Virus record (IMG/VR): IMGVR_UViG_2541047172_000030
Source: a virus
Lineage: Duplodnaviria; Heunggongvirae; Uroviricota; Caudoviricetes
Strand: one strand, 5' to 3'
DNA: 20,554 bases
Shown here: positions 2,035 to 2,427 of the stretch, piece by piece
Numbering within the stretch: position 1 is the stretch's first letter
Layout of the letters: every line of letters begins with the position of its first letter
Position numbers and translations under genes: made by a program
Notes under the pieces: model-generated
Told to the model about the DNA's origin: nothing
Database searches by the model: none
Seen by the model: the letters and a program-made list of their open reading frames with translations, nothing else

Positions 2035-2427
2035 ATGAATGAACATCACACTGTGGCAGCAACAGATGATTCAGGTCTTCAGGTCAGTGGTGACAATTCT
2101 GTCACGGTGCTGGCAGAAGTGCGTTGCAGTCGTTCGGCGTTTCGTCGTGCGGGGTTCCTGTTCACGCGTGGACGTCAGCAGGTTGAGGTCACCCCGGAGC
2201 AGCTTGCCCGACTGGAGGAGGAGCCATGCCTCACTGTGCGAATACTACAGACGTCTGCTGATGATGCGGGGAGCGTGGCGGGTGTGGTTCATGCAGTGGC
2301 CGGTACAGATTTAGCCGAAGCCGAAGCCGAAGCCGAAGCCGAAGCCGAAGCCGAAGCCGAAGCCGAAGCCGGACAGGATGCTCCCCGGAAAAAGACCGGT
2401 AACAAAGCGGAACAGGCCCGTGCATGA
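2035..2427 (+). CDS. Hypothetical head-region protein with C-terminal (Ala-Glu)9 repeat, at the Mu gp35 position
   Basis: 130-aa ORF with a GGAGGG ribosome-binding site 6 nt upstream of the ATG. Its stop overlaps the next gene's start (ATGA). Contains an in-frame GCCGAA hexamer array. Confidence 0.55.
   Translation: MNEHHTVAATDDSGLQVSGDNSVTVLAEVRCSRSAFRRAGFLFTRGRQQVEVTPEQLARLEEEPCLTVRILQTSADDAGSVAGVVHAVAGTDLAEAEAEAEAEAEAEAEAEAGQDAPRKKTGNKAEQARA
2314..2370 (+). repeat. Perfect tandem hexanucleotide repeat (GCCGAA) x9 plus a partial unit, in-frame within a CDS
   Basis: Read directly: 9 uninterrupted GCCGAA units at 2314-2367 followed by GCC. Encodes AEAEAE... in the + ORF. Confidence 0.9.

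Follow-up and report, generated by a model that had tools for sequence, protein, structure and literature searches.

A hexanucleotide repeat in the gp35-like gene of a Mu-like prophage corresponds, by its primer sites, to the EHEC typing locus EHC-5

Gene organization around the repeat

The window, by which we mean the entire stretch of 20,554 nucleotides that was analysed (IMG/VR record IMGVR_UViG_2541047172_000030), comes from a Mu-like prophage of Shiga-toxin-producing E. coli, of the Sakai Sp18 type, and corresponds to its late region. Its genes, assigned by Pfam, form a Mu-type late operon that includes protease I (positions 10-1044) and the major head subunit gpT (1044-1991, plus strand; PF10124, E 6.6e-119). 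Immediately downstream of gpT lies a gene for a protein of 130 amino acids (2035-2427, plus strand), which is in turn followed directly by the gene for the gp36 head-tail adaptor (2424-2843, plus strand; PF07030, phrog_195) and by gp37 (2840-3400). On the basis of a FluMu_N domain match, a match to PDB entry 2OUT and the annotation of the O157:H7 Sakai genome, in which the homologue is ECs_4975 of prophage Sp18, we call the 130-residue protein gp35-like and place it in the HI1506 family. Beyond gp37 the window holds genes for the sheath, tube, gp41, tape measure, baseplate, fibre, a serine invertase, a SASA/DUF6645 esterase and Mom, and the late operon is intact throughout the window.

The gp35-like gene is preceded by a GGAGGG Shine-Dalgarno sequence (2024-2029), 5 nt before the ATG at 2035, and its stop codon overlaps the start codon of gp36 (ATGA, 2424-2427). 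A consensus scan for sigma-70-like promoters and intrinsic terminators found none within positions 1900-2500. Between the gpT stop and the gp35-like start there is a GC-rich hairpin (1999-2017; GCCGGGC, a 5-nt loop and GCCCGGC) that lacks a T-run; it was not called a terminator by the scan, and the GenBank record of Mu has a predicted terminator at the same place. On the minus strand, an open reading frame of 64 amino acids (2231-2425) reads the array described below as (Arg-Leu)n; it is probably no gene and is most likely open because the array contains no stop codons on that strand.

The array consists of nine GCCGAA copies (2314-2367) and a final GCC (2368-2370), after which the sequence continues with GGA. 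The (GCCGAA)9-GCC element as a whole (2314-2370, plus strand), which is the variable core of the typing locus discussed below, is in frame with the gene and encodes (Ala-Glu)9-Ala, with (AE)9 at residues 94-111 and alanine at residue 112, so that the protein reads L-(AE)9-A-GQDAPRKKTGNKAEQARA. Tandem Repeats Finder places the array at 2313-2371 with period 6, 9.8 copies, 100% matches, 0% indels and a score of 118, and reports no array scoring above 44 in the rest of the window. The 18-mer (GCCGAA)3 occurs seven times exactly and eight times with up to two mismatches in the window, against no occurrence in 100 dinucleotide-preserving shuffles. The earlier note, made from the letters of this DNA, had described a perfect, uninterrupted nine-unit array within a head-region open reading frame; both the direct reading and the repeat search bear this out, and the position of the gene between gpT and gp36 agrees with a head region. 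Directly after the array comes a basic C-terminal tail, GQDAPRKKTGNKAEQARA, which together with the stop codon occupies 2371-2427 on the plus strand. This tail exists in two length forms that differ by 9 nt, one ending in NKAEQARA as in the window and a longer one ending in NKAKQAKKARA, found in other alleles.

The 1-kb region around the array is present in 229 of 5426 complete E. coli genomes, where it occupies 268 places in all, at many chromosomal positions and with up to four per genome; two Stx-converting phages contain it as well, in the form of an 'inserted Mu-like phage'. The many insertion sites, the occurrence of up to four copies per genome and the presence in Stx phages argue for recent transposition. 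Matches of the window to other E. coli genomes stop at about 20242-20244. The prophage probably has its right end here, in which case the final ~310 bases would be flank of the insertion site. When CAGATTTAGCCGRAGCCG was scanned in species-representative genomes, all 39 matches were due to chance and none was homologous to the locus, so the Sp18-type allele has been seen only in E. coli and in one partial protein of Shigella sonnei.

Two further features of the window lie outside the head genes. Between the invertase and Mom, a plus-strand open reading frame of 679 amino acids (15956-17995) carries a SASA sialate O-acetylesterase domain and DUF6645, and resembles esterase cargo of the NanS-p type, which is otherwise characteristic of lambdoid prophages in EHEC. 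A tail-fibre assembly gene (Caudo_TAP, 14269-14901, minus strand) adjoins the serine invertase (Resolvase and HTH_7 domains, 15296-15856, plus strand), a layout that, judged from gene arrangement, is like the invertible host-range switch formed by the G segment and a Gin-like invertase in Mu.

Family and predicted fold of the gp35-like protein

The FluMu_N domain covers residues 36-72 (2140-2250, plus strand) and scores 35.2 bits against a Pfam cut-off of 25.8. In RefSeq the protein is named 'HI1506-related protein'. No HMM of NCBIfam matches either the window protein or Mu gp35, and the RefSeq name therefore probably derives from another kind of rule. A sequence search of the PDB retrieved FluMu gp35/HI1506 (2OUT) with E 1.6e-4, which improved to 3e-12 with a family profile. 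A phmmer search with the N-terminal 93 residues against 1.84 billion representative proteins gave only 14 matches. One of these, the repetitive 789-residue protein P0088, looks spurious.

Mu gp35 is the homologue of the window protein in both sequence and position, since it likewise lies between gpT and gp36, with an identity of about 29%. With HI1506 (2OUT, PF17891) the window protein has the FluMu_N domain in common, and 2OUT is also the best structural match for its model. HI1506 reportedly consists of two domains, the C-terminal one being helical and following a flexible linker. Most family members are built of FluMu_N, a variable linker rich in P, A, S and D, and a conserved C-terminal domain of ca. 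50 residues. In contrast, alignments showed that the Sp18-type protein lacks the C-terminal domain of the Mu, Edwardsiella, Erwinia and Salmonella members and has (AE)n and the basic tail instead. The open reading frame in the window stops 18 residues past the tract, and the basic tail measures 18-21 residues across alleles. In other family members the position of the tract is taken by the P/A/S/D-rich variable linker, and the distant member P0086 has a low-complexity tail of A, E and K.

Structure prediction with AlphaFold2 was based on an alignment of 29 sequences; this model replaced an earlier single-sequence model of low confidence. Residues ~21-75 are predicted confidently (pLDDT 84-92 for 21-70) as a three-stranded sheet with a helix. 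For residues 79-130 the pLDDT values fall below 50, and the tract, being among them, thus lies in a region that is predicted to be disordered. Fold searches with the model retrieved only 2OUT and Bacillus subtilis YqbF, both with weak scores. The suggestion that the tract might be a length-variable linker therefore stands in part: its length does vary (see below) and it separates FluMu_N from the basic tail, but it does not join two folded domains in this protein, where the C-terminal domain is missing.

Identity with the typing locus EHC-5

A modified version of the MLVA scheme of Izumiya et al. for EHEC O157, O26 and O111 is in use in Japan, and Japanese public institutes apply the Izumiya scheme in EHEC surveillance (PMC10062581). 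Its locus EHC-5 is amplified with forward primer ATACTACAGACGTCTGCTGATGA and reverse primer CCGCTTTGTTACCGGTCTTTTTC (PMC10062581, S5 Table). Both sequences are found in the window as exact, single matches, the forward primer at 2242-2264 on the plus strand, with no match expected by chance, and the reverse primer at 2388-2410 on the minus strand. The two primers enclose the array and define an amplicon of 169 bp (2242-2410) with nine units. Because the published primers match exactly on both sides, the array is a known variable-number repeat used for typing: judged from its primer sites the (GCCGAA)n array is EHC-5, an identity based on the primers as given in a paper (PMC10062581) later than the description by Izumiya et al. 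in 2010. The idea that the repeat might serve as a strain-typing marker was thus correct, and such a use was already known. Literature searches for VNTR or MLVA in combination with GCCGAA or TTCGGC returned primer noise only, and nothing was returned under ECs4975, Sp18 tandem repeat or HI1506.

The reported behaviour of EHC-5 fits a locus on a mobile prophage. In most O157 clades EHC-5 is scored as 0 (no amplification), it is variable in clades 3 and 12, and its quartile values go up to 10 (PMC10062581); null alleles in most O157 strains together with variation elsewhere are what such a location would give. The genome data agree, as only the 229 of 5426 complete E. coli genomes mentioned above carry the region, on a mobile Mu-like prophage. 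The CDC PulseNet scheme does not include EHC-5 (PMC10062581). Null alleles of EHC-5 and EHC-6 are equally frequent in O157 clade 2 (0.7619 for both; PMC10062581, S3 Table), so that EHC-6 might be located on the same mobile element; the EHC-6 primers are absent from this window, i.e. from the late region of the prophage.

The use of EHC-5 for discriminating EHEC outbreak strains is established, and what is added here is its biological context. Location on a transposable Mu-like prophage explains the null alleles and implies that more than one allele could be obtained from a genome in which the prophage is present several times. Many HI1506-related E. coli proteins from draft assemblies are labelled 'partial' (P0055, P0062, P0063, P0066 and others) and are shorter than the N-terminal part plus the tract, an indication that contigs assembled from short reads often end at the repeat or close to it. 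Users of MLVA or short-read data should bear in mind both the mobility of EHC-5 and these apparent contig breaks.

Copy-number variation

Comparison with related prophages, as the earlier note had proposed, showed repeat counts between 1 and 20 units. Letter-by-letter reading of 13 loci gave counts of 1, 2, 4, 4, 8, 9, 13, 14, 15, 16, 16, 18 and 20, and the GCCGAA units are perfect in all of them; the count of 8 is that of the Sakai locus (NC_002695.2 5061524-5061910). This is the opposite of identical counts with degenerate units in relatives, the pattern that the earlier note had named as speaking against its reading. The expectation that Ala-Glu dipeptides could be gained or lost without breaking the frame also held: the open reading frame is intact in 13 of the 13 loci, encoding proteins of 117-152 amino acids, and the N-terminal domain is conserved.

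The window and seven of the other loci have 1541 bp of flanking sequence in common without a single mismatch, and still carry 4, 8, 9, 13, 14, 15, 18 and 20 units, which indicates that the array changes much faster than point substitutions accumulate. Among the 103 genomes listed we distinguish 18 alleles of 1 to 20 units; for most of these genomes the counts were derived from the lengths of BLAST matches rather than from the letters. Differences in match length relative to the window are multiples of 6 only, apart from the separate 9-nt indel in the basic tail, which accounts for lengths that are not multiples of 6. The length-based counts agreed with the 13 loci that were read, except for CI5, for which length indicated 17 units and reading gave 16 perfect GCCGAA units and one degenerate GCCGGA. 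Alleles of one or two units occur in 12 of the 103 genomes, including lineages that are found in several strains. Cattle isolates 114, 118 and 138 have 14, 15 and 13 units, respectively, with near-identical genome sizes and coordinates; this suggests that the isolates, which we take to be clonal, differ by recent single-unit steps.

The rarer alleles include cases in which a point-mutated unit was itself amplified, giving (AE)5(AG)3 and (AG)4, and others with VE interruptions. In the E. coli allele P0073 (...VAVWWFMQPAGTKPKPKPDEGYSRKKTGNK...) the repeat is apparently read in another frame, as (Lys-Pro)3, between two compensating frameshifts; as a single sequence, this variant could be real or a sequencing error.

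That the differences in copy number are artefacts of sequencing or assembly, with repeats collapsed or expanded, is hardly credible. The partial proteins from draft assemblies do point to breaks at or close to the repeat in short-read data, but the genomes compared here are complete assemblies, and pairs from the same source give equal counts: 14 and 14 for 6535WT and 6535NalR, 10 and 10 for 96_1414B and 96_1414P, 9 and 9 for 97-3250 and 97_3250, and 8 and 8 for FRIK2455 and FRIK2533. The unit counts are therefore reproducible. Moreover, the length differences are exact multiples of 6 once the separate 9-nt indel is set apart, and fragment sizing by PCR in MLVA also yields different alleles at this locus (PMC10062581).

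It is also very improbable that the prophage is defective and the gp35-like gene decaying within it, with a repeat that drifts without constraint. In favour of this reading, Mu gp35 lacks a demonstrated function and does not appear in the structure of the Mu virion (PMC11915804), and the PHROG family to which the window protein belongs, phrog_3622, is annotated as 'unknown function'. Decay is at odds, however, with the intact reading frame and conserved N-domain in all 13 loci, the strong ribosome-binding site and the overlap with the gp36 start; the whole late operon is intact in the window as well, and the many insertion sites argue for recent transposition.

Possible role of the protein in the phage

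A clue to function comes from comparison of the family profile with the PDB, which besides 2OUT gave a match to 8rkc_B/8rqe (E 6e-4; 86% probability and E 5e-6 with hhalign). Entry 8RKC is the capsid of Pseudomonas phage JBD30 decorated with trimers of gp39, the gene of which lies directly after the major capsid gene (PMC11445458). Decoration proteins of this type bind as trimers at the three-fold axes of the mature capsid. The gp39 chain was deposited as 'Mu-like prophage FluMu N-terminal domain-containing protein'. JBD30 gp39 and the window protein have the motif RRAGF...QL..L..DP.L.V in common, both are encoded directly after the major capsid gene in a head module of the Mu type, and the model of the window protein, with its three-stranded sheet and helix, resembles the fold described for gp39. 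The homology is nevertheless remote: the E-value is 6e-4, the gp39 fragment scores below the Pfam cut-off, and gp39 was not retrieved by the fold searches. The two proteins also differ in their disordered parts, that of gp39 being N-terminal and without a repeat tail, whereas the window protein has a disordered repeat tail at the C-terminus. In JBD30, gp39 was found on only about half of the virions (PMC11445458).

The profile match and the position of the gp39 gene make a decoration role plausible, and we tentatively suggest that the gp35-like protein may be a minor capsid (decoration) protein like JBD30 gp39, an assignment from sequence comparison that we hold to be a serious candidate just short of probable. 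For Mu itself, a cryo-EM study from 2025 detected no cement proteins on the capsid; gp35 could not be placed in the structure and was regarded as possibly related to the connector (PMC11915804); the GenBank record of Mu (AF083977) labels gp35 as 'head-to-tail connector complex protein'. The family link to JBD30 gp39 points to a possible function of Mu gp35 that could be tested.

Proposed explanation of the length variation

Taken together, the array is very probably the EHC-5 VNTR in the gp35-like gene of an Sp18-type prophage, driven by slippage and tolerated in a disordered tail. As the allele pattern suggests, the array would grow and shrink through slipped-strand mispairing in replication, for the most part by single units, and each event would add or remove one Ala-Glu dipeptide. 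Repeated slippage would also keep the units identical. Since the unit measures 6 nt the frame is never shifted, and the outcome is a length polymorphism rather than on/off phase variation. The array was considered as a phase-variable contingency locus and rejected as such, because a 6-nt unit lies inside an open reading frame and 13 of 13 alleles are in frame, with products of 117-152 amino acids. The changes in length are presumably tolerated because the tract forms part of an intrinsically disordered acidic segment between FluMu_N and the basic tail. This explanation assumes that tract length is neutral, one or two units apparently being sufficient, as in 12 of 103 genomes. If the protein does decorate the capsid, (Ala-Glu)n would be a tail extending from the capsid-bound domain, and its length would be of little consequence.

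The alternative that tract length is functionally tuned, with the acidic (Ala-Glu)n serving as an adjustable spacer or charge brush of which the variation is under selection, seems unlikely to us. The tract could determine how far the basic tail extends or, if the protein is a decoration protein, how the virion surface is charged, and selection might act, for example, on the stability of virions, on their adsorption or on their escape from a host factor. Consistent with tuning, the tract is retained and still perfect in prophage lineages whose flanks differ by ~8%, CI5 with its 16 units being one; a conserved basic tail follows the acidic tract in every case, and a separate A/E/K-rich tail has evolved in the distant homologue P0086. 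On the other hand, the commonness of alleles with one or two units (12 of 103 genomes, among them lineages of several strains) indicates that long tracts can be dispensed with, alleles are broadly distributed with a peak at 14 that is inflated by one clonal set of strains, and (AG)n variants and VE interruptions are tolerated.

A more specific form of this idea, in which hundreds of copies of the protein decorate the capsid of each virion and the length of (Ala-Glu)n, changed by slippage, is a selected, heritable adjuster of surface charge or tail reach, appears more doubtful still. If it were true, variation between 1 and 20 units would affect how stable virions are, how they aggregate or adsorb, or how host defences recognize them, and the repeat would represent an in-frame contingency mechanism acting on a structural protein of a phage. 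The reading that we prefer remains slippage of a tolerated repeat.

Comparison with known systems

With EHC-5 as described for typing, the window array agrees in its primers, its variable copy number and its absence from many strains, and no difference was found. There is also a parallel in behaviour with the simple-sequence contingency loci of Haemophilus and Neisseria, in which a perfect short coding repeat likewise changes by slippage. Those loci switch genes on and off, whereas the repeat in the gp35-like gene never shifts the frame and all of its alleles are full-length.
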